Assembly: GCA_035510735.1 (NCBI GenBank)
Contig: DATKGN010000007.1
Coordinates: 105-64,104 of the forward strand
DNA: 64,000 nucleotides
Direction of reading: 5' to 3'
DNA from: Patescibacteria group bacterium
GTDB taxonomy: Bacteria; Patescibacteriota; Microgenomatia; UBA10105; UBA927
The notes below the pieces were generated by a model. That model searched no databases. It was not told the DNA's origin and saw nothing but the letters and a program-made list of their open reading frames with translations. Shown in pieces: positions 8,470 through 64,000 of the stretch. Within the stretch, counting starts at the first letter, position 1, and each line of letters starts with the position of its first letter. A program made the translations under genes and the position numbers.

Positions 8470-8557
8470 GGTTAGTTGGTTACTTGGTTAGTTGGTTACT
8501 TAGAAACACGTTCTTTTACCAAGTAACAAAGTAACTCGTGTTGCTAACTAACTATTA
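8470..8557. repeat. GGTTAC-type simple repeats (ggttagttggttacttggttagttggttactt) plus imperfect inverted partner between sortase and its substrate gene
   Basis: Seen directly; same unit family as 16535..16614 and 9621..9696. Confidence 0.55.
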
Positions 8558-9287: not shown

Positions 9288-9365
9288 ACCGATCTACCAT
9301 TCTACGGTCTGCCGGCCATAATAATAATCCAATAAACAAATAATCCAATAATCAAATAAAAAATG

Positions 9366-9396
9366 AAACCGGCAGACCCGAAGGGAGCCGGTTTTT
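9366..9396 (+). terminator. possible intrinsic terminator after sortase-substrate gene
   Basis: 'aaaccggc-agacccgaaggga-gccggttt' stem-loop followed by a T-run; loop is long, so weak. Confidence 0.3.
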
Positions 9397-13285: not shown

Positions 13286-16200
13286 ATGAAAATCATCTTC
13301 AAAACACTTGGTAAGTACTGGCCCATCCTGGCACTTCTTGTTATTGAGGTTATTTTGTTCTCAGCCAACTACACCCCGCACACGTTTGTTGTGGGTTGGG
13401 ACAATATGTATCCGGAGCTTAACTTCGGACTTAATCTTAAACGCGCGTTTTTCGGAATCTGGCAGGAGTATCGCGGATTAGGCCTGGAAGACGGACTATC
13501 CCACATAGCAGAGTTACCCCACTACCTATTTCTTTGGCTCCTCTCACTCGCCATCCCGCAGAACTTATTACGGTATACCTTTATATTTCTCATGCACTTC
13601 GTTGGCGGCGTTGGCATGTATTGGTTACTGAAAAACCATATCTTCGCGAAACATCATTCGATCGCAATTCAGCCAATTGCCCTCGCAGGAGCATTGTTTT
13701 ACCAATTTAACTTCGCAACCATTCAGATGTTTTACCTCCCATTTGAAGTGTTTATGGTTCATTTCGCCGCATTACCGTGGCTAATATATGCTGCGCTCCG
13801 ATATCTTGATGCAGGAGCCAAAAAATATCTTTGGCTTTTTGCTATTTTTTCACTTATATCTACCCCTCAAGCTCATGTGCCAACGGTTTTTCTTGTTTAC
13901 GCGATGACTCTAGGGATTATTCTGATAACTCATATGCTTACTTTTCGAAGTCGAATCGCCGTTCAGAGAAGCCTCATCATTATTTTCATCACGTTTATGG
14001 TAAACGCGTTTTGGGGGCTGCCTTTTACTCATACAACAATCACCCATGCCAGCGATATCGCCAATTCTAAGAACAATCAAATGGCTACCGATGATATATA
14101 TCTTAAGAACCAAAAGTATGGAGATCTTATGGATACTGCACTCATGCGGAGTTTTAGCCTTGACTACGTTCAATATGACTACACCACACACTCTCAGAAT
14201 AATATGTTTACCGCCTGGAAAACCCATATAGATAAACCAACCATATCGATAATCTCCGGGGTATTTTTTGCGCTAGCGGTTGTGGGTGTTGCACTTATTC
14301 TCATCCGCCAAAAAAAAGAAGGCTACCCGTTCGTTCTTCTTTTTGTATTCGCATTCCTTGTAATCGGAAATAACATCCCGATACTTTCCCGTTTCTCCGA
14401 AACTCTACAAACGATTATCCCTCTTTTTCACAATGTATTTCGTTTCGTATTCACAAAATTTTTTACTCTTTACGCATTTTCGTATGCGATACTAATTGCC
14501 TATACTCTCTATGAAATAGTTCACAGCACGAGCCACGCAATAAAAAGAGACACAATTATCATTGTATCGTTTTTTGTCGTAATTCTGACGATTTATACGT
14601 TACCGTCGTTTCAGGGAAACTTCTTTTTCAAAAATCTCCGCGTGGCAATACCACAGGAATACTTTGAAACATTCAATTTTTTATCTCAACAAAATCCGTC
14701 AGAACGGGTACTTGTGCTTCCTGCTCCATGGTTTTGGGCGTGGACACAATATAACTGGGATGTCATCGGATCAGGTTTCGAGTGGTTCGGTATCCCCCAA
14801 CCAATCGTCGATCGTGCATTTGACCCCTGGAGCCGAACGGATGAAAACCTTTATTGGGAGCTTTCGCAGGCCATATTCACCAAAAATCCGTCCCGCTTTG
14901 AAGAAATATTGAAGAAATATAACATCACGTGGGTACTCTACGATAAAAATATCATAAACGGCGACTATGAAAGATCTCTTTATAGCGATGTTATTACACA
15001 ATCCCTTGAGTCACTCAAACAAATATCTCCTCCTCAAACCTTCGGTAATATTTCTCTTTACAATTATCAAACGGATAACCCGGATAAAACATCCATCACC
15101 TCGTACGATGGGCTTCCGAATATCGGACCGCAGTATGCGTGGAACGATTATGATGCTCCCCTCCGGGACGTTTCGATATACAAAACTGACACACATACGC
15201 CGTACGATATATATTACCCATTCCGATCGTTATTTACCGGAAGATCACAAAAAGAACTGACATTCACAATTGAAGATCAGCAAAACGACTATAGAATAAA
15301 CACATTGGTACAAGGTATTTCGTCGGGGCAACAACTGGTCACACCCGCATTTGACCCTCAAATATTAACTGATATCGATTCAAAAACAGGAAAACTTATT
15401 GCGCCGCCGGAACCACTAGCGGTACTCCTCAATTCTGAAATAATTGCTACCATAGGGGCCAAACCTGAAATAACGGAATTAAACACCACCTCTCCAAGCA
15501 TACTGACCTTGCAGATACCCAAGATCAAAAATTATCAATACTACGACAGCGATCTCACGAGCGATTTCTCACAAACACCCAAAAGCTGTGACGGATATAA
15601 TACCGGTGTGTTTTCCAGACACTCCGGAGTGGATAATCAGCAGAAGTATCTTCGATTTACAAGTGTCGGATCAAGCAATTGTATTTCGTTCGGCCTATCC
15701 TCCTTTTCCCAAAAAGAAGGGTATCTCGTTCAAGTAAATACAAGACATATTGAAGGGAAATATCTGTCTATTTCAATTGTCAACAATGATACCCGACGGG
15801 CGTTCTTAGAAACGCAGATTGATACACCAGCAGATTCATCAGCTTTTGTACCTTCCTACTTCGTCATCCCGCCTATGGATCCGTACGGATTAGGTTATAC
15901 CATAACAATTGATAATGTCGCGATCGGGAGTCAAAAAACAATTAATGATTTAGCGCGCGTTTCGGTATATCAGTTGTCGTACGCCATACTTTCTGACTTG
16001 AAAATTCAACAATCTAATACTGTCTCTACTTCTTCTGCAAGCACTTCTGAATTGTCCGTCTCTCATCCAAATCCCGCGTACTATAAAGTAGTAATCGGTA
16101 ATAATGGATCCCCGATCAGGTCGGGGATGACAAATACACTCATCCTTTCCCAATCCTTTGATAACGGGTGGAAAGCCTACAGTATCAATAATCCAATAAT

Positions 16201-16504
16201 CCAATATACAAATAATCCAATAATCAAATGGATTGGAGAATCGCTGCCATTCGTATTTGGCACGGAATTTACAAATCACGTCCTCGTCAATAATTGGGAA
16301 AATGGATGGGAGCTGCCTGAGGCAGAAGTTCATGGTTCAAAGTTCATAGTTCAGGGCAACACGAATCAACCATCAACCATGAACAATGAACCAATAACCA
16401 TTATTCTCTTTTTCTGGCCGCAGCTATTGGAGTATTTGGGATTTCTCCTTCTCCCTATTCCATTCATCTATGTATGGAGATTGAAGTACGTCGAAAAACA
16501 CTAA
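13286..16504 (+). CDS. large polytopic membrane protein (1072 aa), possible GT-C/YfhO-like membrane glycosyltransferase or polysaccharide-assembly protein
   Basis: About 12 N-terminal hydrophobic helices, a long extracytoplasmic C-terminal domain, a final TM near the C-terminus; immediately downstream of the GT2 gene. Confidence 0.55.
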   Translation: MKIIFKTLGKYWPILALLVIEVILFSANYTPHTFVVGWDNMYPELNFGLNLKRAFFGIWQEYRGLGLEDGLSHIAELPHYLFLWLLSLAIPQNLLRYTFIFLMHFVGGVGMYWLLKNHIFAKHHSIAIQPIALAGALFYQFNFATIQMFYLPFEVFMVHFAALPWLIYAALRYLDAGAKKYLWLFAIFSLISTPQAHVPTVFLVYAMTLGIILITHMLTFRSRIAVQRSLIIIFITFMVNAFWGLPFTHTTITHASDIANSKNNQMATDDIYLKNQKYGDLMDTALMRSFSLDYVQYDYTTHSQNNMFTAWKTHIDKPTISIISGVFFALAVVGVALILIRQKKEGYPFVLLFVFAFLVIGNNIPILSRFSETLQTIIPLFHNVFRFVFTKFFTLYAFSYAILIAYTLYEIVHSTSHAIKRDTIIIVSFFVVILTIYTLPSFQGNFFFKNLRVAIPQEYFETFNFLSQQNPSERVLVLPAPWFWAWTQYNWDVIGSGFEWFGIPQPIVDRAFDPWSRTDENLYWELSQAIFTKNPSRFEEILKKYNITWVLYDKNIINGDYERSLYSDVITQSLESLKQISPPQTFGNISLYNYQTDNPDKTSITSYDGLPNIGPQYAWNDYDAPLRDVSIYKTDTHTPYDIYYPFRSLFTGRSQKELTFTIEDQQNDYRINTLVQGISSGQQLVTPAFDPQILTDIDSKTGKLIAPPEPLAVLLNSEIIATIGAKPEITELNTTSPSILTLQIPKIKNYQYYDSDLTSDFSQTPKSCDGYNTGVFSRHSGVDNQQKYLRFTSVGSSNCISFGLSSFSQKEGYLVQVNTRHIEGKYLSISIVNNDTRRAFLETQIDTPADSSAFVPSYFVIPPMDPYGLGYTITIDNVAIGSQKTINDLARVSVYQLSYAILSDLKIQQSNTVSTSSASTSELSVSHPNPAYYKVVIGNNGSPIRSGMTNTLILSQSFDNGWKAYSINNPIIQYTNNPIIKWIGESLPFVFGTEFTNHVLVNNWENGWELPEAEVHGSKFIVQGNTNQPSTMNNEPITIILFFWPQLLEYLGFLLLPIPFIYVWRLKYVEKH

Positions 16505-16534: not shown

Positions 16535-16614
16535 TGTTACTTGGTTACTTGGTTACTTTGTTAATTGGTTACTTGGTTACTTGGTTACTTTGTTACTTGG
16601 TTACTTTGTTAATT
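16535..16614. repeat. octamer microsatellite (TTACTTGG / TTACTTTG)n, ~10 units
   Basis: Seen directly, between two convergent genes; the track ORF 16534..16812 over it is an artefact. Confidence 0.7.
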
Positions 16615-16634
16615 GCCGTTTCTTGTCCTGGGTA

Positions 16635-18167
16635 TCAACGCGCGCCTGTGCCGGGGAACATCAGACTCGCTCTTAATCGCTCTTGGGGCGTCAGAGGTAT
16701 CACTTCATCTCCTATTTCGCTTTGCCATTTCTTAAAAAATGCCCAAACTTTCGATTTCAGGGGTTCTCGGGCAAGCTCACCTGAATCTATCCATTTGCTC
16801 ACAGCAGCATGAAAGCCTTTAATGATATTTTCGTGAAACTCCATACCCATTTCCGAAAATCCCTGCTCACAGACGGCAAGGGCCAAATCAGGCGATACAA
16901 CCTGCGGGAGGTGACTATAGAGATAAATCCGGACATCTGCATGATCATCGGTACGCCGTCTCTCTATGAGGTTTCGTAAACGCGTTCGCAGTGGAGACAT
17001 CGTATGCTTATCTCCCTCTATCTGACCGGCTGACACCAATGCATACTGCCGGACTTCATATGAAGGATCATCCGTCAATTTGTTCACATCGTTGTATAAA
17101 CCAATATTTCTTTGCTTTTTCGGAAGAAATGCCATGATCTTTGCTGCGACAATTCGCTCCTCTTCCTGACCCACCGCAAGCTCATGAAACTGATTAATTA
17201 CCTCGTTGGAATATTCTTGTGCGAAATTATGCAAGTACTCAACAACCGTTGATCGCACATCCTCTTCTTCCACATCAAGAAGCCTCGTAAGCCCGCTCAC
17301 AGCTTCCCGACGATCTAACTCCATATAATATTCAATGACATTAAATAATGCGTTATGTCTTCGCGCGTCGTGCGGTTGTATTTCATACTTCAAGAGATTG
17401 TCAATCAGAACTCCCACGGCATTAAATCCCGCCTGATGGAAGGCTTGTGGGTCATCGATGTTGCCGTAGACAGCGTAGTTGTCTTGAGGGTTATTCCAAA
17501 GATTGGAAAGCCAACCTATGAGGTCGGGTTGCACGTTTTCAGGTAAATTCCCCAACTGAGGATTATATTTCAAGGCGTTTAACGTCAAAATATCCGACAA
17601 TAATGCGGTACTATATTGCCCTCTTATCCCCGGGTCTTTGATAATTGATGTCAACCCGTGCGTTGCTAACTTCCACATGGCAAATTGATCCCCCATTACC
17701 CCCTCACGGGTGGCAACTATGGCCTTTGCTAAACCGGGAAATGCCATCCCTTCATGTTCAAGTTGTGAACCCCGTATTTTTTCGCGCATATCGACAAAAT
17801 GATACCCGTTTTGCTTGGGCCAAACCATAGCCCATGCAAATACTTGTCCGATCCGATCCTCTGTTTCGAGACTCGGTCGACCGGAAATCTTATAAAACGG
17901 ATCATGATCATAGGCTTTTTTTGCTCCCCAAACCATCTCATGATATAGGCCCGTGAACCTATCCGACGCACCATCTCTCCCAAGTGTTTTATCTTCAATA
18001 TATCCAATAGGCCCATTATTGGCTAAAAACCAATCTACCGCGCGTTCCCAAATCGGCATAAATTTAAAGTCAGGAGGATTAAGCCACTTTTCCATCATGA
18101 CGGGATCATCCAAATTAATAAATTTTCCGACGACATCAAGTGAGGGTTGATCTGGATTTGTTGGCAT
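16635..18167 (-). CDS. hypothetical protein, expanded paralog family A (HEAT/ARM-like C-terminal repeats)
   Basis: Shares collinear blocks with 18222..19718 (VFAWAMVWPKQ vs ALGWAVVWPQ; FPGLAKAIVATREG vs HPGVAIAIVQAR; LLSDILTLNAL vs LLRDILTYNVL); HEAT-like 'EVRQYALVSAG', 'DVRIYLYSHL'. Confidence 0.55.
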   Translation of the reverse strand: MPTNPDQPSLDVVGKFINLDDPVMMEKWLNPPDFKFMPIWERAVDWFLANNGPIGYIEDKTLGRDGASDRFTGLYHEMVWGAKKAYDHDPFYKISGRPSLETEDRIGQVFAWAMVWPKQNGYHFVDMREKIRGSQLEHEGMAFPGLAKAIVATREGVMGDQFAMWKLATHGLTSIIKDPGIRGQYSTALLSDILTLNALKYNPQLGNLPENVQPDLIGWLSNLWNNPQDNYAVYGNIDDPQAFHQAGFNAVGVLIDNLLKYEIQPHDARRHNALFNVIEYYMELDRREAVSGLTRLLDVEEEDVRSTVVEYLHNFAQEYSNEVINQFHELAVGQEEERIVAAKIMAFLPKKQRNIGLYNDVNKLTDDPSYEVRQYALVSAGQIEGDKHTMSPLRTRLRNLIERRRTDDHADVRIYLYSHLPQVVSPDLALAVCEQGFSEMGMEFHENIIKGFHAAVSKWIDSGELAREPLKSKVWAFFKKWQSEIGDEVIPLTPQERLRASLMFPGTGAR

Positions 18168-18221
18168 AACGGTAATTATGGGTAGGAGTTAGGCAGATTA
18201 TTGTATAGTGTCGTATATTTG

Positions 18222-19718
18222 TCAAGAAAAAATATTGTTATTCGTGAGCAAGTCTATAAGGGGACGAGCACTCTTTAGATTTCCTGTTGTTACCTCACTA
18301 GCTAGAAATTCCCTGACCCGCTGCGTCAGATCTGCATCAAGAATCTTCGTCTCATATTTCCATCCTCTAACCGTTGCCGCAAATGCGCTCCATATTCTCT
18401 TCCGTTGATTCTCCGTCGCAACATCCTGAAGCCCCCGGCTCACAAGACGAAAGGCAAATTCCGGTGTGACCTGAGACTGAAGCGATTCATACAACTCGCT
18501 TACTTCCGGGTGATCGAATAAATTATCCAAGATACCGTCACGAATTCTTGCTGCAAGACCTTTATCAACATTTGGATCTCGCTCGACGAAGGCTACTGAG
18601 GCAAAAGCGCTCGCCCGGACCGAGAGTGACTGATCAAACGCCAATTGATCGAATAGCTCACCCAACAACTCTTCGCCGTGTATTTCCGGCAGAAACCGGA
18701 TTAATCGGGCCGCTATTTTGCGCCCTTCTACATCTGGTGATCCTTTATGTTTAGCAATGTGATCCACGAGAATACCAGGATTACGGTGAAGTATTCGGGA
18801 AATTGTCATATGAGCCTTGCCGCGCGGGAGATTTTCAGGCAAATCCATATATTGCGAAAGTATGTCTAACGAATCGGAATCATCAATTCGCGAGACATAT
18901 TCGTTCACTGCCAATAACGCGCTTACCCTTCGTCCGGAATGAGGCGATATATCCCTAGGACAACCTATCAATGTGCGGACAAAATCGCCCACAGCACGCG
19001 TTGCAGTTTCCCGCTCAACCGGAGAGAATTTTCGATCGTTAAATAAATCTAGCCACATGAGTAATTCCGGCTGGGACGCGACCGGCGGATCCTGAATTCC
19101 GGTATCATGACTGTTAAGAAGAACATTGTATGTAAGAATATCCCTAAGGAGGCTGACGCCCACCTCTTTGGCTTTTTCTTCTGATACGATCGACTTGACG
19201 CCCTCAACGGCTAAATCCCATAGATAGAACTGATCCAGCTCCCGCTCCATTCTTGCCTGAACGATTGCAATTGCCACCCCGGGGTGTTTGATGCCGATAT
19301 TCTGAAGATCGGAATCTTCATCCCTCATAGTCGAGTCTATTTGTTGAAGGTCAGGATATTGAGGCCAAACAACCGCCCAGCCCAAGGCTTTTTTAATCCG
19401 GTCAAGGACCTGTGATTTCCGCGGATTATCATCATGAAGTTTATACGCGAAGTTGTACGCTCCGACTGCCCCGTCAATTAATGCACTATACAGCTCCCGG
19501 GATTCTATTCCGTAATCCCGTTTAAGAGAAGACGTCTCAACATACGTCACCGGGCCGTCTTTGCCTGATAATAAATGGTCAACCGCATTCCCCCACATGT
19601 CTACTGTAAGCGGGTGAAAATGAAGGGCTGCCTCCAGATTATTGGGGTTTGAAAATAGCCGATCCGCAACTTTATGAGCAAATCCTTTGTGTTCGGTTTC
19701 TACTGGCGCCAATGTCAT
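18222..19718 (-). CDS. hypothetical protein, paralog family A
   Basis: See 16635..18167; HEAT-like 'SVRASAFASVAF'. Confidence 0.55.
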   Translation of the reverse strand: MTLAPVETEHKGFAHKVADRLFSNPNNLEAALHFHPLTVDMWGNAVDHLLSGKDGPVTYVETSSLKRDYGIESRELYSALIDGAVGAYNFAYKLHDDNPRKSQVLDRIKKALGWAVVWPQYPDLQQIDSTMRDEDSDLQNIGIKHPGVAIAIVQARMERELDQFYLWDLAVEGVKSIVSEEKAKEVGVSLLRDILTYNVLLNSHDTGIQDPPVASQPELLMWLDLFNDRKFSPVERETATRAVGDFVRTLIGCPRDISPHSGRRVSALLAVNEYVSRIDDSDSLDILSQYMDLPENLPRGKAHMTISRILHRNPGILVDHIAKHKGSPDVEGRKIAARLIRFLPEIHGEELLGELFDQLAFDQSLSVRASAFASVAFVERDPNVDKGLAARIRDGILDNLFDHPEVSELYESLQSQVTPEFAFRLVSRGLQDVATENQRKRIWSAFAATVRGWKYETKILDADLTQRVREFLASEVTTGNLKSARPLIDLLTNNNIFS

Positions 19719-19847
19719 GTGTTTTTATGAGGCAGAGGAAAACTTGTGTGAAGTATCCTACACTTGGCTTTGATTGTCAATATAATGCCAAACCAGGTCA
19801 CCTACGAGGCCTAGGTCACCTAAAATATGGCATGATAGAATACAGTC

Positions 19848-20567
19848 ATGCTGACTCTTATTCTTCTCGCAGAACTCATCGTCCTCTATTTTCTCTCTCG
19901 TTGGGTGACACAGAGCTTATTTACGTTCTTTCTCCTCCTTTTCCGATCACGCCCGGTAGCCGTCTCTATTCTTCTCGTTCTCGAATTCCCCGGCACGGCG
20001 ATTCATGAACTTTCCCACCTGTTTACTGCCGAGATTTTAGGCGTCAAGACGGGAAAATTGTCATTGGAACCTGAATCCATCCGCGGACCGGATATAACGA
20101 GCGGCAGTGTTATGATCGCCGAAACCGACCCGTTCCGGCGCTATGCCATCGGCCTCGCGCCTATATTTTCGGGGATAATTGCACTAACGGCGATTTCATA
20201 CTTTACAAACGGTCTATGGACGTCTGTTTTTTCATCGCATGTGGTTTTTTACCAAAATGCTGATTTTTATTTGTTACTCCTCATCGGGTATTGTTTATTT
20301 GCCGTCAGTAATACGATGTTCTCCTCACCCGCTGATTTGAAAGGCTTTATCCCCTTTTGTATTGTGTTGACTGTTTTTGTCGTCGCGCTCTACTTTACCG
20401 GCATACGGATTGTTCTGACGGGATTTGTACTTGAAGAGGTCACTAGAGTGGTAACAACGTTGGTTAGTAGTCTCGGTATTGTTCTTGCGATTAATGCGGG
20501 GCTATTGGTCGTCGCCTGGGCGCTTCGGAGCGTCCTTCAAAAAATAATGCATCTTCAAATTGTTTAA
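19848..20567 (+). CDS. polytopic membrane protein with HEXXH motif, putative intramembrane zinc metalloprotease
   Basis: 'FPGTAIHELSHLFTAEILG' (HExxH) inside a hydrophobic segment; 5-6 predicted TM helices. Confidence 0.45.
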   Translation: MLTLILLAELIVLYFLSRWVTQSLFTFFLLLFRSRPVAVSILLVLEFPGTAIHELSHLFTAEILGVKTGKLSLEPESIRGPDITSGSVMIAETDPFRRYAIGLAPIFSGIIALTAISYFTNGLWTSVFSSHVVFYQNADFYLLLLIGYCLFAVSNTMFSSPADLKGFIPFCIVLTVFVVALYFTGIRIVLTGFVLEEVTRVVTTLVSSLGIVLAINAGLLVVAWALRSVLQKIMHLQIV

Positions 20568-20569
20568 CG

Positions 20570-22114
20570 TTATAGAATCCCATCCGAATATACGTTTGTG
20601 CCATAGAGAGCTCTTTTAATATCACTCATGCGAGCCTGCGAGATCCTGCCCTGATATAGATCGAGAAATTTTTCTACTCTACCCATTTCGCCAGTCAATA
20701 TGCCTTTTTTTCTCCACGTATCTATAGCAGTTAATAAGCCAATTGCCGCCTGATCTCTCTCATGTGAAAGATCAAAAGCGAGTCCATGTCGGACAACAGA
20801 AAGTCCGCCATCCACGCTCATCATGCGGGGCATATACCGGACCATTTTGGCGTAACTCCCGTGCCGACGCTCCGCCTGCTCATCTAACATCTCGCCAATG
20901 AGATCGCCCACATGATAATCATGCGCATCCCACCACGCGTAAAGCTCTGCAATTTCAATATCAACATCCTGAGTCGGAATCTTTCTCACCTTGTTTATAA
21001 GATTTCTCACCCGCCGGTCCGTAGGCTTAAACCATCGTAAGAAAAGAATTCCAATCCGCTGATCCGTCCCGTAGTATAAATACCGTTCTAAAAACGGTTC
21101 GAATTCCTTTTTATAACTGACGAATCGACGTAACATATAGTCAACTATGCCGGATCTGACTTCCTCATCCTGATAATTGAGCCCTTTTAATAAGGGAACC
21201 AAAAGTTTATTGTGCCAATGCCGACTATCCATATCATTGGCGATTGTCACAGCAATATGCGCAATTTGTTGCTTCCAAGCGGTCGTAATTTTTTTCATTT
21301 CGACCGGTGAACAACGCCAATCCTCCTGAAGCGGCAGTTTATAGAGCTTCACGGCTGCGTCGATAAATGCTTCTCTTGCATCAGTAACATTATGTTCTAG
21401 AGCCGCGCCCACGAGTCCCGAGGTAATTTCAAGATCTCCTGAGGTAATTTCATGGACATCACCCTCCAACATTTCTGATTGAGCGTCTTCTATGATCAAT
21501 GAAGATAAAAACTTCTTTGCATACCATGATTTATTATGCGGCTCCGTTCCGTTTTTGAACGTGTCATCACTAAATGTATCTAACCCCATTTGTACCAATT
21601 TCCAAAGCCGAAATTGATAGTCAACGACATTGTCGACATTTGATAAGTTACTTTGAACTTTGTCGATAGCACGCATCGTTTGAGTAAAATACTCCTCTTT
21701 TTTTCTCGAGTAGAGAGTATTATCTTGCCATATCATAGTTGTTGCAAGTGCCCGTCCAACATACTTTGGTATTTTCTCATCAAATTCGGGTGAATTGAAA
21801 AAGTTATTTTCCTGTGCCACATACAGTGCGCCTTCAACAAGCCGTTTGTGCATTCCTTCAGGAGATATAATTGCCCGTCCGCCAAGATGTTCCATTGCAA
21901 AGGATTCTCCGGGGATAGCACCTGAGGAGACAATATCGATCGCGCGCATCCATTTGTCGATATCGCGACCATCCAAGGATTGCGCAATAAATAGAGAATG
22001 CTGCTCTTTATTATTTAATTGAAGTTTAAGGTTTTCCTGCATAATACCAGTCCGTTTTTGGAGCAGATGAACGTTATGTCCAGGATAATATATCAACCGG
22101 GCCCGTTGTGTCAA
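20570..22114 (-). CDS. hypothetical protein, paralog family A
   Basis: 'KYVGRALATTMIWQDN' and 'WKLVQMGLDTF' blocks align with family A members. Confidence 0.5.
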   Translation of the reverse strand: MTQRARLIYYPGHNVHLLQKRTGIMQENLKLQLNNKEQHSLFIAQSLDGRDIDKWMRAIDIVSSGAIPGESFAMEHLGGRAIISPEGMHKRLVEGALYVAQENNFFNSPEFDEKIPKYVGRALATTMIWQDNTLYSRKKEEYFTQTMRAIDKVQSNLSNVDNVVDYQFRLWKLVQMGLDTFSDDTFKNGTEPHNKSWYAKKFLSSLIIEDAQSEMLEGDVHEITSGDLEITSGLVGAALEHNVTDAREAFIDAAVKLYKLPLQEDWRCSPVEMKKITTAWKQQIAHIAVTIANDMDSRHWHNKLLVPLLKGLNYQDEEVRSGIVDYMLRRFVSYKKEFEPFLERYLYYGTDQRIGILFLRWFKPTDRRVRNLINKVRKIPTQDVDIEIAELYAWWDAHDYHVGDLIGEMLDEQAERRHGSYAKMVRYMPRMMSVDGGLSVVRHGLAFDLSHERDQAAIGLLTAIDTWRKKGILTGEMGRVEKFLDLYQGRISQARMSDIKRALYGTNVYSDGIL

Positions 22115-22142
22115 TCTAAAAGATAGCGTATTAATACACCTG

Positions 22143-22395
22143 ACTGTGGGTACCGATGTTTACAAGGAGAACAGTATCATCGCTTCGGGTAAATAGTATT
22201 CGTAAATCGTATCCGACGGAAAAACTCCACGTTTCTCGTTCATATCCATCCAACTTGTGAATACGGAGAACCGGGTGTTTCGGATTCAATCTGAATTGTT
22301 CAATTTTCTCTTTAACAATTTGAGCCTTTTGGGCATCTCGTTTTACCAGCCGTTTATACGGCTCTCACAAAAGAGGGCGCTAATTCAAGGTTCAT
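22143..22395 (-). pseudogene. ParE/RelE-family toxin disrupted by a -1 frameshift (or sequencing error)
   Basis: Minus-strand ATG at 22395 overlaps the ParD stop (ATGA). Frame 1 gives 'MNLELAPSFVRAV*'. The adjacent frame continues 'KRLVKRDAQKAQIVKEKIEQFRLNPKHPVLRIHKLDGYERETWSFSVGYDLRILFTRSDDTVLLVNIGTHSQVY*', a typical RelE/ParE pattern. Confidence 0.55.
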
Positions 22396-22640
22396 AGTGC
22401 ATCTAAATCATCGATTTTATTAATCGGAGTCGTCTTTCCCGCTTTATAGTCTTTCCATGCTTGATCAACCAATGTTATTTGACGCTTATTCATCGGTATA
22501 ATTGGAATCTCCGGCTCCAATAGCCTACGAAGAGCATCACGAATAACTTCGCTCAGCGATCCATAGTACCCTTTTTTTACCTGTTCTCGAGCTGCTTTCG
22601 CAAGCTGTTTTGGCAATGATATATTGACTGTATAATTCAT
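22392..22640 (-). CDS. parD: ParD/CopG-type ribbon-helix-helix antitoxin
   Basis: 'ISLPKQLAKAAREQVKKGYYGSLSEVIRDALRRLLE' matches the RHH antitoxin pattern; 82 aa; immediately upstream of the toxin remnant. Confidence 0.65.
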   Translation of the reverse strand: MNYTVNISLPKQLAKAAREQVKKGYYGSLSEVIRDALRRLLEPEIPIIPMNKRQITLVDQAWKDYKAGKTTPINKIDDLDAL

Positions 22641-22672
22641 ATATGAATATCATACAATTTTTGTATGTATTG

Positions 22673-23311
22673 TCAAACATCGTTCATCGCATGGAGCTCG
22701 CGGAATTCATCGGAAACTGAGTGTATTCTGTAGGCTACAACTTCCCCTTCAGTCCCCCGTTCAATCCCCGTGTAAATATGCCGCATGATCCAGGGAAATT
22801 CACTTTCCCACCGTACAAAATGCTTTCCGGGCATGTGATGATACATCAGAAGCTCCTTTGAGTCTTTCGCATGCCATAAGGTAAAATCCTCAACCGCCTC
22901 ATATTTGAGCACATCGAGTAAAAAAGGGCATGTGAGGGCGAATTCTACCATCTCCTCCCTGGCTGCAACAGAAAGATGTTGCGGATCGTCAGGCGGCCGC
23001 CGTATTGACTGTCCTACGACGCCACGCTGGCCCCACATCTCCCTCGGCCGGTCATAGGCATGTTTGTACAATTGGTAGGGCGTCGCTCCAGCCGGAACGG
23101 ATAATAATGACCCTAATTCGCGGACTAATTCTGTTGGCTTATGGTGAGTTGTCTCCCACACCCAATGAATATAGTTGGGGCCAATGGAAAGAAATTTCGC
23201 CGTTCCCGTTTCAAAATCTTTATATGCACCGGATAGCCAAAATGACGGATCAAGATACTTCTTGGTCATTACTCCATCGGCAAACACATGGCGTAGATCT
23301 TCATTGGACAT
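22673..23311 (-). CDS. hypothetical protein (212 aa)
   Basis: ORF; no recognisable motif. Confidence 0.45.
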   Translation of the reverse strand: MSNEDLRHVFADGVMTKKYLDPSFWLSGAYKDFETGTAKFLSIGPNYIHWVWETTHHKPTELVRELGSLLSVPAGATPYQLYKHAYDRPREMWGQRGVVGQSIRRPPDDPQHLSVAAREEMVEFALTCPFLLDVLKYEAVEDFTLWHAKDSKELLMYHHMPGKHFVRWESEFPWIMRHIYTGIERGTEGEVVAYRIHSVSDEFRELHAMNDV

Positions 23312-23382
23312 ACTTTAGTATGCGGAACGCATGAGATGATAATACTATAAGACTATATTAAAGTAAAATCCCGATGAAGCGT

Positions 23383-24879
23383 TTATTGGAGTAATTCTAA
23401 AATAGCCTTCTCATACGACCCGACCGGATATTTACGATAGGCTTCAACCATTTCTTCAATGTTCATACGAAGAACAGCGCCATCCGGACCATCCAAAAAC
23501 CCTTTCTTCTTCCACAGTTTTACCGATTCTTCAAATACCTGTGCGGCCACGACCTGGGAATCATGTGCGATGAGACAATCCCTAAAAAACATCATAGCAG
23601 TATCCACGGAAATAAATGGAAGCGCGCGGATAACCTCATCCCGCGCCGCAGCTGTACCGTTAAAATCGCTAATAATCTTCACTTGAGCTCCATCACGGTG
23701 CATTATATTACGCGACGCGTCGGCTTCAATTTCAGCGAGCGAGATATACGTTGCAATTCGGACGGGCTTTCGCGGGTCATCTAAAAACGTATACGTGAGA
23801 TTCGAAAACGTCTCTTTGGAAGTATCCGTCGGAACGCATGCGATAAGCGATGCCGCAGCAAGCGCTAAATCCGCATCATAGCGGAACGCCGACGCCGCCA
23901 AATGCCTGAGAAGCTGATTCGCAAACCAACCGCCGCCTGAAGTGTACCTTTCCTTTATTTTTGTATATATAAGGGGTTTCGCTTCCTCATCTGCCATCGA
24001 CAACAGTCCGATAAATCCATCCAATCCTTCTTCCCGGTCCAAGCGTTCATAAAAAGTCATGAGGTTCTCAATGAACCTATGTTTAGCTCTGTTGTCATAA
24101 TTTCGCCCGCGGACTTCGTCCCCCCGGTCTATAGGGAATAGTCGATGCGCATATGTATTAACCCCGTCAATCATTATTGCCCGTATAGGATCAACAGAAG
24201 ACGGAAAATATCCCAACACTTCACCGGGCCATGCGTCTACGCTCGGAGCGCCCTTTAACACCTGCTCGGAAATCATATCCGCCATGACCATCGTGCCAAC
24301 CCGCGAAGTATATTCCGGGGCGAACTCCTGTACTCCATTGACGAGAAACATCCAGAGCGCATAGTTCCACGTTTTACCTCCGCGATCGACGAGTTTCGTC
24401 GCCACATTATGAGCCCATTCTTTCTCCCCCAGATACTCTCTCCACGGGTCACCTGCATCCGCCCGTTTCCCGAGGAAAGTAAAGCCCTCCGTCATAGACA
24501 GAAGCGCCACCTGGCTCAACACCTGCTTAAACCGTTTTTGCGTGCTTTCGGGGGGGAAATACGATTCGAATGTTGTTTTGAATTGATCTATCGTACTATC
24601 AAGGAGTGTATTTGTTAGCTTTTTGAGACTCTCTTCACGGTTGACGAGCGGACCATGGGTTCTCATACAATCCGTAATGTAGCCAAATATTCCGCCGGTT
24701 TCAGGAGTTGTGATCTGGCCAACGACTGCCTCCCAATCACGTAGACCAATATCTTTTCGGCTTAGGGTATCAACCACATGTTCTATCGTCCAAATTTCAC
24801 GGGCGTCACCAGTAGAGAAAGATTCGAAGGCTCTCAGGTTCGGATACGGAAGTGCTGCTTCTGCTTGTGATGTCGGCAT
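23383..24879 (-). CDS. hypothetical protein, probable paralog family A
   Basis: Similar length and architecture; 'NYALWMFLVNGVQEF' and HEAT-like 'KPVRIATYISLAEI'; assignment weaker than for other members. Confidence 0.45.
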   Translation of the reverse strand: MPTSQAEAALPYPNLRAFESFSTGDAREIWTIEHVVDTLSRKDIGLRDWEAVVGQITTPETGGIFGYITDCMRTHGPLVNREESLKKLTNTLLDSTIDQFKTTFESYFPPESTQKRFKQVLSQVALLSMTEGFTFLGKRADAGDPWREYLGEKEWAHNVATKLVDRGGKTWNYALWMFLVNGVQEFAPEYTSRVGTMVMADMISEQVLKGAPSVDAWPGEVLGYFPSSVDPIRAIMIDGVNTYAHRLFPIDRGDEVRGRNYDNRAKHRFIENLMTFYERLDREEGLDGFIGLLSMADEEAKPLIYTKIKERYTSGGGWFANQLLRHLAASAFRYDADLALAAASLIACVPTDTSKETFSNLTYTFLDDPRKPVRIATYISLAEIEADASRNIMHRDGAQVKIISDFNGTAAARDEVIRALPFISVDTAMMFFRDCLIAHDSQVVAAQVFEESVKLWKKKGFLDGPDGAVLRMNIEEMVEAYRKYPVGSYEKAILELLQ

Positions 24880-24999
24880 AATGAAAAATAACCGGCAGGA
24901 GGACTAATTAATGCCGAACTATAGTACGATTACTTCGACCTGTCAAGCAAAGTTGATAAATATCGAAGTGGGGATATTTCGGCCGGTACTAATGGGAAA

Positions 25000-25644
25000 T
25001 TATCGCTGTACCAGACTGTACGTCGAATCGTCCCGATGGCGACCATGCCGCTCTCTCACAATGCTCCACACCCCAGTAGTGTCAAAGTCAAGCTTGTGAT
25101 TTATTTCTGCGATCGTATCTATAATCTCTTTCGGCTTCATATCGTGAAGCCGCAGATCCAATTCAAGAAAACGTAGCTTTGATTGATCACCGTACGCACG
25201 GGATAATTCTAAAAATATCTTAAGCTCTGCGGGAGCCAATCGCGGCTCAGCTTCTGTTTGATTAATGACGGTCGCATACCGCATCATGACCAACAGCCTA
25301 GACATATCATGCTCAAAGGGAACCCCCGAAAACCAATCAGGATCGGGCATAAAACCAGCAGGTCTAAGTATTGTCCCCGGCTCCTGAACCCCATCCAGAT
25401 AGACATATCCGTGTCCCGTTATCGTAAAAAGAGACCCATTTCGCTTCGGAGCCTCGTTGTGACGAACCCGCCATATGAGCTCGTTTACACCGTTTTCCGG
25501 ATTCGGATTACCGGGAAAAAATTTTAATTGAAATTCCTCAGTTGTAATCAATTTGTTTTCATTAAGAAAAAAATGCCGCATGGCACGCTCAGCGATCGGA
25601 TAGTCCGAATAATCGATATAATATTCATGCGGCTTTTCAACCAT
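25000..25644 (-). CDS. hypothetical protein (214 aa)
   Basis: ORF; no recognisable motif. Confidence 0.45.
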   Translation of the reverse strand: MVEKPHEYYIDYSDYPIAERAMRHFFLNENKLITTEEFQLKFFPGNPNPENGVNELIWRVRHNEAPKRNGSLFTITGHGYVYLDGVQEPGTILRPAGFMPDPDWFSGVPFEHDMSRLLVMMRYATVINQTEAEPRLAPAELKIFLELSRAYGDQSKLRFLELDLRLHDMKPKEIIDTIAEINHKLDFDTTGVWSIVRERHGRHRDDSTYSLVQR

Positions 25645-25764: not shown

Positions 25765-26499
25765 ATGACTACTCCGGAAGAAATCAAAGCCACTCCTGAT
25801 AAACAATACTACGAAACGCGCGAAAGTTCTCTTGAAATACCCCCGGTAATTAAAAAGCACGGATCGTACGCTTATTTCCCCGTCGTTGAGGATGCCGGAC
25901 AATCATCTTTAGCAGGAATTAAAATCAAGGGAACTTCACACGGATCTCTTTTATTCCCTTCATTTACCTATAACGGTGACCCTGTTATCCTTTCCATGTC
26001 AAATCAACCCACGAGCGATGATCCTAAAAACTATCGGTACAACCTGGAGGGACATGGATTGCTCATCCCCCACTATGGAGTATTCAAAAATAAAAATTTA
26101 AATATATATCAGCCGTCGAATACTCCCTGGAATATCGAAGCTCATGGGTCGGTAATCGCCCAAGCACATTATGATGCATCTGATCAGGCAATGTGGATAA
26201 TGATCACCAACCGCACGCTTCCGATCTCAGTACACTTAGACAGAAAACAGACCTGTTCATTTCTTGTCGAATCTGAAAAAATATTTTACGATTTGTTATT
26301 CCGGGATTTTTCTGATTATTACGATCCGACGATGAAAGAAAAACATCCGCACGCATTTGTTCGATTTCCAAACCATCATGAAATGGAATTAACCGAATCA
26401 CATAGAACGCAATCCTGGGTAATGAATGGTAAGGATCTGTGTACGTTCTCATTCCTCACGCCGGCGCAGCAACCCATAACCCCAACAGCAACTGAATAA
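25765..26499 (+). CDS. hypothetical protein (244 aa), tandem paralog 1
   Basis: Collinear with 26544..27281 (GIKIKGTSHGSLLFPSFTYNGDPVILSMSNQP vs GIKLPLGQKASLVYPSFTVRDSPVHIILESMP; both end '...GKxLCTFSFLTP'); 'tcctataat' -10-like box about 105 nt upstream. Confidence 0.5.
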   Translation: MTTPEEIKATPDKQYYETRESSLEIPPVIKKHGSYAYFPVVEDAGQSSLAGIKIKGTSHGSLLFPSFTYNGDPVILSMSNQPTSDDPKNYRYNLEGHGLLIPHYGVFKNKNLNIYQPSNTPWNIEAHGSVIAQAHYDASDQAMWIMITNRTLPISVHLDRKQTCSFLVESEKIFYDLLFRDFSDYYDPTMKEKHPHAFVRFPNHHEMELTESHRTQSWVMNGKDLCTFSFLTPAQQPITPTATE

Positions 26500-26543
26500 A
26501 ATCTTTATCCTGCAATTGACAGCGACAAATCGTTCGTATTATC

Positions 26544-27281
26544 ATGCCGCGCATGGCAGTACCGGCAGAAACCACCATCCGTCCTTGGCTCGACTTGCAA
26601 TACAGTTCTGTTGAGATTCCATCCAATCTGGAAAATGCAGGGTTGTATATTGAGTTCCCCACAAATCCAGACACCGGTAAAATCGCACTCACCGGCATAA
26701 AACTACCACTTGGACAAAAAGCTTCACTTGTCTATCCATCATTTACCGTTCGCGACAGTCCCGTACATATTATTCTAGAAAGTATGCCGGCAAGAGGAGC
26801 GTTCCCAGAACTCGGTAAGCGAGCGTATCCGGAGCAAGGGAAAATAACGTATGTGTATAGCGGGGTAAAAGGTGGGCATTTTCTGATATCACGTTCCAGC
26901 GAAAACCCGTGGAAGATTGGCATATTGAGAGAAACGGTAGCCAACGCATACTGGGATAGCAAGGACCGTTCGCTCCACATCAATCCAACTTTGGCAACAC
27001 TCCCAGTTGCGATCCTCGTGCACCCCAGGCGAACGTGTACATTTTTTGTCGATTATCAAGGACAATCGCGCCCGCTTGACGTAGAGGATGTATCGCAAGG
27101 GAAAAGCGAGGTTGGCCGGCCCAATCCAAGAGCGTTTGTGGAATTCCACACGGGCAAGCTAGCACGATTGAATCCGTTTCGCCCCACGACATCATGGATG
27201 GTTGGCGGCAAAACGTTATGTACGTTTTCATTTCTCACGCCGCCCCTCGGGCTCACGAAGCAGGAAGCTCCACAATCTTAA
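26544..27281 (+). CDS. hypothetical protein (245 aa), tandem paralog 2
   Basis: See 25765..26499. Confidence 0.5.
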   Translation: MPRMAVPAETTIRPWLDLQYSSVEIPSNLENAGLYIEFPTNPDTGKIALTGIKLPLGQKASLVYPSFTVRDSPVHIILESMPARGAFPELGKRAYPEQGKITYVYSGVKGGHFLISRSSENPWKIGILRETVANAYWDSKDRSLHINPTLATLPVAILVHPRRTCTFFVDYQGQSRPLDVEDVSQGKSEVGRPNPRAFVEFHTGKLARLNPFRPTTSWMVGGKTLCTFSFLTPPLGLTKQEAPQS

Positions 27282-27961
27282 GTTGATGTAACGGGGTTTA
27301 TCGCTTCGGTCCCAGACACAAATGTAGCACCGGGAGAAAGAATCAGTGTGCCCTCCAGAGCATGAAGATGAGGATTCACTGGCGGTCCGACACGGACTTC
27401 TGTATAGTGAAAAAGTTCCCGTCCGCCTACATCGACTCCAGGGAGCAATGAAGAGCTGTGTTCATACGCTTCAACCAGAACCGAGGCGTCTTTTCCGTTC
27501 CACTGATGGTTAATAACCATCCATGAGTCGTGCGCTTTGTAAAAACGGGAAATAACCGCCGCTGCACCAGGATCACTTACTGCAATTTCCTGATGATCGT
27601 CGCGGTTCAAAAGCACCATGCTGATACTTGCCGGCACCTCCACTTTGGATGCTATCTGCAGCGCGTCTACAAGCGTTCCAACGTCAGTAGGGATCGTCCA
27701 ATCAAGCCCGACGTAGGAAGAGGTTTCCGGAATCCACATTTTCATCCCTGCCGGAGTTTTGATATGATTCCAATCGCCCTTGTGGTTCCTCGTCTGAAGA
27801 TCCAGCAATTCCAAATTGCCGATCTCAACCGGCTTAAAAACCGCTTTCCCTCTGTTTTCAGAACTTAGTGCTGCTTCAACGTGAAATGCCATAGATTTAT
27901 CCGCCAATAACCTCCACAACACCAGCGCCACCGAATCCTGGTTCTTTGGGCTGACAATCAT
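27278..27961 (-). CDS. hypothetical protein (227 aa)
   Basis: ORF; overlaps upstream ORF by 65 nt out of frame. Confidence 0.4.
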   Translation of the reverse strand: MIVSPKNQDSVALVLWRLLADKSMAFHVEAALSSENRGKAVFKPVEIGNLELLDLQTRNHKGDWNHIKTPAGMKMWIPETSSYVGLDWTIPTDVGTLVDALQIASKVEVPASISMVLLNRDDHQEIAVSDPGAAAVISRFYKAHDSWMVINHQWNGKDASVLVEAYEHSSSLLPGVDVGGRELFHYTEVRVGPPVNPHLHALEGTLILSPGATFVSGTEAINPVTST

Positions 27962-32212: not shown

Positions 32213-32899
32213 TCAATATGATGATATGGGCGCTTCCGATAGCGGAGTTCTTCGGAGAAAATCGAGTCTCACAGGCTCATAACCCCAACCAGCCTTGTCT
32301 CCTGAATTGATGGTAAATACTCTCATCGTCCCGAAATATGGTGATCCGGAATCCATACGCAATGATGGCCGGAGAAAAAATGAGAGCCGGGATACATTCT
32401 CAATTTCGTGAGACGTAGGCCACTGCCCCCAACAGGCCCGTGGAGCGTTATGCAAATAGTCTTCTATAGAATCCAACCCCCCGCTCACAATCTTAAATGT
32501 CTCAATATCGCGGGTTATCGTAAAATTTGAAGGCGATCCCATATACCATACGTTACTATCCTTTGTCCGGACCAAAAAATAGCTATGGACAGGTTCAATG
32601 AACCGATGTTGCGGGCTCTCTTTCCATGAAGTCAAAAGCACAAACCGGTCAAATAGTCGTCCTGCCTGTTTATCTTTTGCAATTGACCATAACGCCAAGG
32701 CCGATGCATCGTGGCATTTGAATTTCGTCCAAGCAACCAGATCGAACAAAGATTTGTCAAACGATACAACTTTTTCTTCACCCTCCCCTTCTCCTGCCCA
32801 CGCTAACAATCCGGGCTCAATTTGCCGCCAGAAAGAATACCGCATGGAATGGGCGACAACGTCTCTTGACATTTGTACGCCGTCATCAAGTTCTTGCAT
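32213..32899 (-). CDS. hypothetical protein (228 aa)
   Basis: ORF. Confidence 0.45.
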   Translation of the reverse strand: MQELDDGVQMSRDVVAHSMRYSFWRQIEPGLLAWAGEGEGEEKVVSFDKSLFDLVAWTKFKCHDASALALWSIAKDKQAGRLFDRFVLLTSWKESPQHRFIEPVHSYFLVRTKDSNVWYMGSPSNFTITRDIETFKIVSGGLDSIEDYLHNAPRACWGQWPTSHEIENVSRLSFFLRPSLRMDSGSPYFGTMRVFTINSGDKAGWGYEPVRLDFLRRTPLSEAPISSY

Positions 32900-39536: not shown

Positions 39537-39600
39537 AATTATTCTCTCTTTAACACTTCAAAAAACGCCGACTGGGGAATTTCGACGAGACCTTAGAATT
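39537..39600. repeat. direct copy (copy B) of the lepA 3' end, putative att site between two cargo modules
   Basis: 'caattattctctctttaacacttcaaaaaacgc' is 33/33 identical to the lepA terminus at 41417..41449; then diverges (cgactggggaatttcgacgagaccttagaattca). Confidence 0.65.
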
Positions 39601-40127
39601 CAAGATTGTAATAGTTGTAGGATCTTTCCCATTATCGCCAACTGCTTACTCGCTTTTTCGATCACGCTCTTTGAAAACAGTCCCTTATAAGACAAATAGT
39701 CCATTGCTTCGCCCTCATCTAAATATTTTTGATGAAATTCTCGTTTACATTGTGGTGTGGACCAAGTCGCATGTGATCGTCGAGGTTCTCGAATATCTAG
39801 AAACAAGCCTTCGACACATGGCTCTGGGACGAAAATAACCCACCTATTGCCAATTAATAGATCTCTTCGTGGTGACGATAATTTAGTATCACCATCCAAT
39901 AGCAATAATTTTCGTGAGTAAGGAATCTCTCCATGCGCTTGCATTGCTTTTTTTGCAGCACCATCAGCTCCGCCTCCATGAGCATTATCGTATCTCACTA
40001 ACTTCCCACATCCTCGCGGACAATATAAACCACCTAAATAATGCAAAAAAGCTTCGTCTGTGGGACCCTCACCGTATAATAGTATCGATTGAAGCTGCAG
40101 ACGATGCAATTGTGATTTCTTACGCAT
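39600..40127 (-). CDS. small TOPRIM-like protein (RloB-like / DUF4276-like), partner of the AAA ATPase
   Basis: N-terminal 'ILLYGEGPTDEAFLHYLGGLY' (hhh-EG-x-TE motif of RloB/DUF4276/OLD-TOPRIM) and downstream 'LLLLDGDTK' acidic motif; starts 3 nt after the ATPase stop on the same strand. Confidence 0.55.
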   Translation of the reverse strand: MRKKSQLHRLQLQSILLYGEGPTDEAFLHYLGGLYCPRGCGKLVRYDNAHGGGADGAAKKAMQAHGEIPYSRKLLLLDGDTKLSSPRRDLLIGNRWVIFVPEPCVEGLFLDIREPRRSHATWSTPQCKREFHQKYLDEGEAMDYLSYKGLFSKSVIEKASKQLAIMGKILQLLQS

Positions 40128-40130
40128 ATC

Positions 40131-48291: not shown

Positions 48292-48314
48292 ACCTCCGTA
48301 TACGGTAAAATACC

Positions 48315-48343
48315 TTGTTTCTCCAGCCTAATCGTCCTATAAT
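48315..48343 (+). promoter_or_regulatory. promoter of rpoD paralog 2: TTGTTT - 17 nt - TATAAT
   Basis: 'ttgtttctccagcctaatcgtcctataat', same architecture as 47025..47053. Confidence 0.5.
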
Positions 48344-48372
48344 TGCTTTCTGATGTAAAACATCACACATAT

Positions 48373-49560: not shown

Positions 49561-50250
49561 ATGGCCGCTGAACTTGATAAGCCTCAGCTATATACCGAAA
49601 CCGATCTGGATCCAAAAATATTTAAAACACCCACGCATCTCATGGAGATTCTTCTCCCCTGGGCTAAAACATGCCCGCCGCCCGGAACAGTTATCGACCT
49701 GGCGGCTGGCCTTGGTACCGAGGTTTTGGCCCTCGAACAGGCGGGCATTCCGGTTATTGGGCAGGAGGGCGGAGAGTACATACATGCGGTCACGACATTA
49801 CAGAAGGGATTGGCAGAGAAGCTCGATCAATATCCCGATCATTCATTTGGCGGGGCATTCCTCAAGGACACATGGCTACTTCTTTCCCCTTCGCAACGCA
49901 GGGAAATGCTCACGGGCCTTAAGCGCATACTACAACCACAAGGATCACTCCTTCTCATCTCCGAAATAATTTCCGAGTATCATGCCCGGGGCAGCAAAAC
50001 TGGTGAAATTGTGGCCCACGATTACCCATCGTGGCGTGCGGGTGTCAGTCTCATCCAATCTAATGAAGGCCTTGAGACAATCAATTATCTGAGTACGCCC
50101 GAAGACACACGATGTACGGCCGAGGAAAACGGATATGAATTTACTCTTATCCGAGAGTATCCTAAAACTGACCCGCTTGCACGGGAAAACCGGTGGACGC
50201 CGGGTGACGGATTTATTGCAAAACTGACACCAAAGACGGGAGAGGAGTAG
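49561..50250 (+). CDS. hypothetical protein, possible class I methyltransferase-like fold, paralog 1
   Basis: 'VIDLAAGLGTEVLALEQAGIPVIGQEGG' (motif I-like) and 'GSLLLISE'; collinear with 50387..51091 (both have 'DDPLARENRW'). Confidence 0.4.
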   Translation: MAAELDKPQLYTETDLDPKIFKTPTHLMEILLPWAKTCPPPGTVIDLAAGLGTEVLALEQAGIPVIGQEGGEYIHAVTTLQKGLAEKLDQYPDHSFGGAFLKDTWLLLSPSQRREMLTGLKRILQPQGSLLLISEIISEYHARGSKTGEIVAHDYPSWRAGVSLIQSNEGLETINYLSTPEDTRCTAEENGYEFTLIREYPKTDPLARENRWTPGDGFIAKLTPKTGEE

Positions 50251-60907: not shown

Positions 60908-60908
60908 G

Positions 60909-64000
<3,092 letters not shown>

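Follow-up and report, generated by a model that had tools for sequence, protein, structure and literature searches.

A rare family of HEAT/ARM-type alpha-solenoid proteins at a lineage-specific hotspot in Gottesmanbacteria-like Patescibacteria

The window analyzed here, a 64,000-nucleotide stretch of contig DATKGN010000007.1 from a Patescibacteria group bacterium (assembly GCA_035510735.1), carries on its minus strand four genes of a protein family designated family A, which are named by their lowest coordinates. The first (16635-18167; 510 aa) encodes a predicted soluble, all-alpha solenoid of the HEAT type and is followed by 18222 (18222-19718; 498 aa), by 20570 (20570-22042; 490 aa, counted from the ATG at 22042), which represents a conserved '20570-type' subfamily, and by 23383 (23383-24879; 498 aa), the most divergent of the four, for which no close relative was found. 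An initial annotation, based on the letters of this DNA and its open reading frames (ORFs), had recognized an expanded minus-strand family of 440-550 aa at this position, a size range that is corrected here to 490-510 aa in the window and 437-517 aa in relatives, and had added a probable fifth member at 44532.

In an all-against-all BLASTP comparison of 50 window ORFs, 16635 matches 18222 with an E value of 1e-38 (28% identity over 453 aa), 23383 with 4e-9 and 20570 with 5e-5. A non-circular test was provided by a hidden Markov model (HMM) constructed from nine family A members, with 23383 and the 20570 type left out; this core HMM recovers both, 23383 with an E value of 1.4e-14 and 20570 with one of 1.3e-8, the remaining window ORFs scoring about 0.06 or weaker. 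Furthermore, profile-profile alignment with hhalign pairs the core profile with the 20570-type profile at 97% (E 1e-10, 431 columns) and with 23383 at 97.5% (402 columns). Because the independent HMM and the profile-profile scores agree, and BLASTP with them, the four ORFs are, as judged from their sequences, homologues across their full length, in keeping with the family that the initial annotation had proposed, despite very low pairwise identities among the paralogues (14-30%). The collinear blocks by which the family was originally recognized (xxGWAhVWPQ, HPGhAhAIVxAR and LLxDILTxNxL) can be read in 16635 and 18222, with degenerate versions in 20570 and 23383.

The proposed fifth member (44532-46184, minus strand) is not demonstrable as such. 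It fails in BLASTP (E 0.27), with the independent HMMs (E 0.05-0.06) and in hhalign (15-22%), and reaches an hmmsearch E value of 4.7e-5, slightly above background, only once all four genes are in the training set; the signal passes through a single HEAT-like stretch at residues ~379-451, and no match to PDB sequences was found. A possible 'family B' (51983/53346) was likewise rejected or remains unproven as a relative of family A, and searches of all other window ORFs with hmmsearch and hhalign revealed no hidden members.

Near-consensus sigma70-like promoters, matching at 10-11 of 12 positions, are found on the minus strand 30-60 nt upstream of every family A start codon, at 18197-18225 for 16635 (11/12), 19752-19780 for 18222 (10/12), 22087-22114 for 20570 (11/12, with an extended -10 TG) and 24918-24946 for 23383 (11/12). 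The four genes thus look like separate transcription units, each with its own predicted sigma70-type promoter. The mechanically called third ORF (20570-22114; 514 aa) begins with a TTG at 22114 that is part of the -35 hexamer TTGACA of this promoter, and the database protein P0004 and its orthologues P0008 and P0009 start at the ATG at 22042; for these reasons the third gene most likely begins at that ATG, spans 20570-22042 and would encode 490 aa.

The AlphaFold2 model of 16635, built on an alignment (A3) of 14 sequences, consists of helices only, about 29 in number, with a mean predicted local distance difference test score (pLDDT) of 83.4 and a predicted template modeling score (pTM) of 0.82. 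Comparison of the model with the PDB by Foldseek returned only generic HEAT/ARM solenoids (SF3B1, CAND1, importin-alpha, a designed armadillo protein, alphaRep and the PP2A A subunit), with TM-scores of 0.2-0.3, root-mean-square deviations of 13-22 Å and 10-13% identity. At the level of sequence, the family profile matches PDB entries of a designed armadillo protein (1.6e-15), alphaRep (3e-7) and AP-1/AP-2 beta (6e-5 and weaker), and this HEAT/ARM signal is restricted to profile positions ~230-400. Pfam HEAT_2 reaches 23.9 bits, below its cut-off of 27.7, and is found as a sub-threshold match in 4 of 14 members, at residues 270-332 in the case of 16635; the same central segment is matched repeatedly by long multi-HEAT_2 proteins from the exhaustive search described below, one of which has a NACHT domain. 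The HEAT/ARM-like repeats of the initial annotation are thus borne out both by the profile matches and by the all-helical model, within a protein in whose N-terminal 230 residues no recognizable repeat was found.

This N-terminal part is a distinct feature of the family. When its 238 residues are modeled alone, they give a pLDDT of 77 and a pTM of 0.79, and for the first ~230 residues there is neither a sequence match nor a structural one (best Foldseek E value 0.3). It is also better conserved than the central part, with a mean pairwise BLOSUM score of 0.7 versus 0.24-0.31 for residues 201-400, and it contains nearly all of the family-wide signature residues, which are mainly hydrophobic or aromatic (W40, A43, D45, G52-P53, Y56, G81-A82, W116, A147, Q161, W165, G171, L189-L190 and N197) and form the motifs W-x2-A-x-D, G-P-x2-Y, G-A, W-P, Q-x2-L-W and L-L-x-D-I-L-x2-N. 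On the strength of the model and the profiles, family A is described as comprising soluble HEAT/ARM-type alpha-solenoids of predicted two-part architecture; it is a new family of a well-known fold class rather than a demonstrated new mechanism. Searches of Pfam, NCBIfam, PADLOC and PHROGs gave nothing for it beyond the sub-threshold HEAT matches, and PADLOC-DB v2 assigns 0 families to the four members and to 44532. Since no catalytic-looking constellation of residues is conserved across the family alignment and the fold is of a class used for binding, a non-enzymatic binding function is suggested, and protein binding, rather than housekeeping or catalysis, is most likely the role of these proteins.

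Family A is real, very rare and clade-restricted to Gottesmanbacteria-like Patescibacteria (members of the Candidate Phyla Radiation, CPR). Among 5.8 billion clusters, a word-indexed search gave two matches, a 100%-identical fragment and P0002, the nearest relative of 16635, at 45% identity. A profile search run exhaustively over 1.84 billion representatives (E <= 1e-3) gave 31 matches, about half of which are generic multi-HEAT giants; ~12 are family-sized (437-517 aa, plus fragments), and four of these are the proteins of the window itself. The initial annotation had named a broadly conserved housekeeping scaffold as the finding that would speak against its view, and roughly a dozen clusters out of 1.84 billion representatives, far from indicating such a scaffold, correspond to the lineage-specific alpha-solenoid family that it had proposed. 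All family A clusters lie on contigs that are syntenic with the window or otherwise resemble Gottesmanbacteria-like Patescibacteria, and scans of GTDB genomes and JGI metagenomes yielded further loci only in L002 and L001/L013. The family is absent from the corresponding locus of a related 1.22-Mb genome (L011). The window LepA is 100% identical to a database protein of a Patescibacteria group bacterium, and its next named relatives are those of Candidatus Gottesmanbacteria (64-65% identity). A literature search on HEAT or alpha-solenoid families in Patescibacteria/CPR found nothing relevant.

In a tree of the family, the groups {20570, P0008, P0009}, {P0010, P0011, P0018}, {16635, P0002}, {18222, P0014} and {P0007, P0006} are resolved, with P0008 and P0009 being 41-48% identical to 20570, while 23383 and P0016 are each very divergent and are joined to each other only loosely. 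A phage origin of the family was considered and rejected, there being no PHROGs match and no relative on viral contigs in IMG/VR (two pattern sets). The L002 locus (CAYLQG010000095.1), used below for comparison, is a 5-kb contig filed under an 'uncultured Gammaproteobacteria' metagenome-assembled genome; because its synteny with this Patescibacteria window holds gene for gene, that label is probably a binning artefact.

The comparison of the window with L002 separates two modes of evolution within the family. The 20570-type gene is 87% identical between the two, with nonsynonymous (dN) and synonymous (dS) divergences of 0.08 and 0.84 (dN/dS 0.09), and the values for the neighboring membrane protein genes, which flank the slot occupied by 16635 and 18222, are of similar character: the gene for a protein with an HExxH motif shows 76-79% identity (BLASTP or global alignment; dN 0.14, dS 0.95, dN/dS 0.15) and the C-terminus of a GT-C glycosyltransferase 68% (dN 0.21, proportion of synonymous differences (pS) 0.67, dN/dS 0.13). 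In the slot, however, 16635 is 45% identical to P0002 (dN 0.47), and 18222 is 27% identical to P0007, which occupies the equivalent position in L002 (dN 0.90); in both cases pS is 0.76-0.77, so that dN/dS is not computable because the synonymous sites are saturated. Such saturation is found only in the two slot genes, as compared with a pS of 0.50-0.67 in the flanks, and P0007 shows no greater similarity to 18222 than to 16635. The rapid diversification attributed to the family as a whole therefore applies to the slot genes (27-45% identity versus 76-87% in the flanking genes) and not to the 20570 type, which is, on these substitution rates, a stable orthologue under purifying selection. Since the deeper synonymous divergence is confined to the slot, replacement of its contents by old paralogues or alleles would fit better than acceleration in place, although this evidence is suggestive only. 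The window sequence itself recurs in four other metagenome assemblies at 99.995-100% identity, and thus gives no signal of polymorphism within the population.

These data also bear on whether the genes are functionless or decaying lineage-specific ORFs, drifting neutrally as relics of duplication. The very low identity among the paralogues, the lack of a known domain in the N-terminal half and the presence nearby of pseudogene debris, in the form of a ParE remnant, would be in keeping with decay. Neutral junk is nevertheless contradicted by the dN/dS of 0.09 for the 20570 type, by four intact ORFs of ~500 codons, identical in four independent metagenome assemblies, by the near-consensus promoter of each gene, by signatures that are conserved across lineages and by the confidently predicted AlphaFold2 fold, and such an origin is considered extremely unlikely.

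Patescibacteria are generally regarded as episymbiotic, and eukaryote-like ARM/HEAT folds are common among the effectors of other bacteria. It is in this light that family A might be seen as a set of effectors, secreted or injected by an episymbiotic CPR cell, whose variable HEAT surface binds proteins of a host or partner, as the initial annotation had suggested; the identity of the organism and the lineage-specific, partly hyperdivergent nature of the family are compatible with this. However, a hydropathy scan detected no signal peptide, transmembrane segment or lipobox in any member, the proteins are acidic and cytoplasmic-looking (pI 5.2-6.5; 5.3 for 16635), no secretion-system genes occur within the 64-kb window, and the 20570 type is strongly conserved. 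The suggestion is thus left without positive evidence, and an effector role appears distinctly improbable.

The slot discussed above is defined by two backbone genes on the plus strand, an AftD-like membrane glycosyltransferase of the GT-C type (13286-16504; Pfam GT-C_AftD, 7.6e-6), which is convergent with 16635, and a gene for a 239-aa membrane protein (19848-20567) with six hydrophobic, presumably transmembrane, segments and S2P/M50-like motifs including the HExxH. In the related locus L011 the order of genes is sortase, DUF11, GT2, GT-C, HExxH, one further gene, LepA, methyltransferase and a giant M23 protein, and this backbone, compared over 962-14974 of L011 and 7623-56749 of the window, spans 12 kb in the former and 47 kb in the latter, where three blocks of lineage-specific genes, most of them ORFans, make up about 35 kb. 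The gap between GT-C and HExxH is 24 nt in L011 and 3.3 kb in the window, where it contains 16635 and 18222. Between HExxH and LepA there are 16 nt in L012 versus 20.9 kb in the window, with 20570, the ParD gene and ParE remnant, the genes 22673, 23383 and 25000, ~14 kb of soluble ORFans and an AbiL pair following in this order, and the gap after LepA contains 44532, sigma-70 genes in duplicate and further pairs of paralogues. The GT-C gene is syntenic in L002, L007, L009, L011 and L012. In five loci (the window, L002, L007, L009 and that of P0010), family A genes occupy the interval from HExxH to GT-C and are without exception antiparallel to both; in three of these, the window, L002 and L007, HExxH also has a convergent neighbor of the 20570 type.

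This recurrent position, found in five lineages, raises the possibility that family A proteins are accessories of envelope biogenesis, acting as cytoplasmic scaffolds or regulators together with GT2/GT-C and the S2P-like HExxH protein, for example in substrate presentation or tethering. The C-terminal, extracytoplasmic part of GT-C is itself fast-diverging (32-35% identity to L007, L009 and L011, with 61-71% for the HExxH protein), a further point in favor of such an association. In L011 and L012, however, GT-C and HExxH are found side by side in the absence of family A, separated by only 24 nt or by an unrelated gene of 322 aa, and the proposal is weakened by this arrangement. Also unfavorable are the invariably opposite orientation of the family A genes and their own promoters, the disparity between >514 homologues of the HExxH protein and about a dozen family A clusters, and the occurrence of P0016 without any of these neighbors. 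An envelope function is accordingly rated as distinctly improbable.

The HExxH protein had been counted among the unrelated ORFans that alternate with family A, but it is not an ORFan, since more than 514 homologues are present in Patescibacteria, none of them with a Pfam domain. Among 23 homologues the motifs H53-E-x-x-H57 and N155-x-M-F-S-x-P-x-D163-L-K-G166 are invariant, and no sequence match to Pfam, NCBIfam or the PDB was found for the protein; from its motifs, it looks like an undescribed and widespread CPR family of membrane metalloprotease-like proteins. The remaining interleaved genes are as originally described. On the minus strand, an intact gene for an 82-aa ParD/RHH antitoxin (22392-22640; Pfam ParD_antitoxin 8.9e-5, RHH_1; TIGR02606 1.5e-11) is followed downstream by a ParE/YafQ-like remnant of 77 codons (22131-22364), in which the start codon is absent and stop codons precede and which matches Pfam YafQ_toxin at 2.4e-4 and ParE_toxin at 4.5e-4, both under the curated cut-offs; together these are indicative of a decayed toxin-antitoxin (TA) module. 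Two soluble ORFans, of 212 aa (22673-23311, minus strand) and 214 aa (25000-25644, minus strand), have no match in Pfam, NCBIfam, PADLOC or PHROGs, and the latter is a weak paralogue of 51157-51894 (z = 8). The earlier picture of variable cassettes thus needs revision, in that the HExxH gene belongs to the fixed backbone, with family A genes around it, and the 20570 type is conserved.

The lineage-specific block ends, directly beside LepA, with an AbiLi/AbiLii abortive-infection pair on the minus strand (39600-41342), in which 40131-41342 corresponds to AbiLi (2.4e-64; also AriA-like AAA_21) and 39600-40127 to AbiLii (2.5e-7). No mobility genes (integrase, transposase) were seen within the window. 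Local duplications are unusually frequent at this locus and include the tandem pairs 25765/26544 (25765-27281; 32% identity, 4e-33), two sigma-70 factors (47083-49536; 42%, 5e-89), 49561/50387 (49561-51091; 43%, 2e-56) and 51983/53346 (51983-54764; 24%, 1e-40). Tandem divergent paralogues, a hypervariable slot and TA remnants nearby are features that might be expected if family A supplied the immunity-type proteins of a conflict system, whether of the polymorphic-toxin kind or another. Such a function is, however, very improbable for family A, given that no adjacent gene encodes a toxin domain or is of the Rhs/CDI/T6/T7 type, that a length of ~500 aa far exceeds that of typical immunity proteins and that the genes have individual promoters and show no coupling to a toxin. 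For the related suggestion of scaffolds of a polymorphic system, too, there is no toxin partner nearby.

Several further observations were made at this locus. The convergent spacer between GT-C and 16635 contains a tandem array of ten copies of the octanucleotide GTTACTTG (16536-16615), and at the equivalent position L002 (4596-4730) has 17 copies of a different octamer, AACAATAC; further 8-nt arrays, at 8470-8501, 9323-9369, 16186-16229 and 41948-41978, are located in intergenic spacers and inside the coding sequences of GT-C and LepA. LepA (41420-43570, minus strand) has 716 aa, its close relatives having 592-773 aa, and contains a variable insertion, which includes the repeat at 41948-41978, within an otherwise highly conserved translation factor. 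In L007 (1971-3335), the 20570-type gene is immediately preceded, with a 4-nt overlap, by homologues of 32213 and 27278, and in L010 (2629-2991) a 27278-like gene follows the 20570-type gene; the window counterparts are 27278-27961 and 32213-32899, and from this gene order the three genes may constitute a conserved module that has been split by insertions in the window. On the minus strand at 56807-63836, the gene for an M23-peptidase protein of 1366 aa is followed by one for a 975-aa protein with collagen triple-helix repeats, the gene for the latter being GC-rich (63%) and containing long tandem repeats of 9, 18 and 54 nt.

Taken together, the reading that is tentatively preferred, with slightly less than even confidence, is that family A proteins bind partners in the cytoplasm, have no enzymatic activity and belong to an accessory hotspot that is possibly related to conflict. 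The proteins would act as binding or adaptor modules, in which the conserved N-terminal module may hold a common partner and a variable array of approximately six HEAT/ARM-type hairpins may recognize diversified targets. Their genes arose through duplication and divergence and lie in a lineage-specific hotspot wedged into a backbone of GT2, GT-C, the S2P-like HExxH gene and LepA, and the divergent members found in the GT-C/HExxH slot of close relatives are consistent with replacement rather than with drift in place. Because an AbiL pair and TA debris are present in the same inserted block, a role in genetic conflict, such as the sensing or neutralizing of phage or mobile-element proteins, or in some other strain-specific interaction is proposed as the most likely one, purely through guilt by association.

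Several points weigh against this interpretation. No family match exists for family A in PADLOC, NCBIfam, PHROGs or Pfam, its association with defense is limited to one AbiL pair, 17 kb away, and to TA debris, and P0016 is a single-copy gene among housekeeping genes without such neighbors. The absence of the family from viral contigs offers no link to phages. In addition, the synonymous divergence of the flanking genes is itself high (dS 0.8-1.7), which weakens the case for replacement, the cytoplasmic location is read from the hydropathy scan alone and the alignment underlying the AlphaFold2 model has 14 sequences only. A bolder version, in which an undescribed conflict system specific to Patescibacteria would use family A as its diversified recognition component, is considered unlikely. 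Such a system might be directed against phages, mobile elements or host proteins, with the N-terminal module coupling to a common effector or partner and the HEAT array being swapped between strains at the variable slot beside the GT-C and S2P-like envelope genes.

Patescibacteria have genomes of ~1 Mb, and in the present lineage genes for lineage-specific soluble proteins take up ~35 kb of a single locus, about 6 kb of which are accounted for by the four HEAT-solenoid paralogues. In an uncultured group in which most accessory genes are uninterpretable, the definition of the family, of its two-part architecture, its rarity and its hotspot turns these genes into concrete candidates for strain-specific interaction or defense functions, as members of an uncharacterized family and not of a new class of system.

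Compared with known systems, family A is closest in sequence to bacterial HEAT_2/PBS-lyase-type proteins and to the designed alphaRep and armadillo proteins based on them (PF13646, PF02985, PF03130), with which residues ~230-400 align; it cross-matches multi-HEAT_2 giants, including a NACHT-HEAT protein, and is likewise predicted to form a solenoid of helical hairpins. It differs from them in that no member reaches the Pfam gathering score and the N-terminal 230 residues have no counterpart, and also in lacking a bilin-lyase or other enzymatic context. The neighboring HExxH protein resembles site-2 proteases (S2P/M50) in its HExxH and N-x-M-F-S-x-P-x-D-L-K-G signatures, a likeness known here from sequence motifs. 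With the arrays of immunity genes of polymorphic toxins, family A shares only the tandem divergent paralogues. The likeness to defense-island-type hotspots is more extensive, the block having AbiLi/AbiLii, ParD with a ParE remnant, tandem paralogue pairs and a content that differs between relatives within a conserved backbone, although it lacks a PADLOC model for family A, shows no mobility genes in the window and is composed mostly of ORFans. The eukaryotic solenoid adaptors (importin-alpha, the PP2A A subunit, SF3B1, CAND1 and AP-1/AP-2 beta), which lead the Foldseek matches, belong to the same architectural class and bind their partners on a concave helical surface, a resemblance of fold class and not of orthology (TM-scores 0.2-0.3). 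If the proteins do act in a conflict system, they would be comparable with the repeat-based sensors of the STAND/Avs systems, yet as stand-alone proteins.

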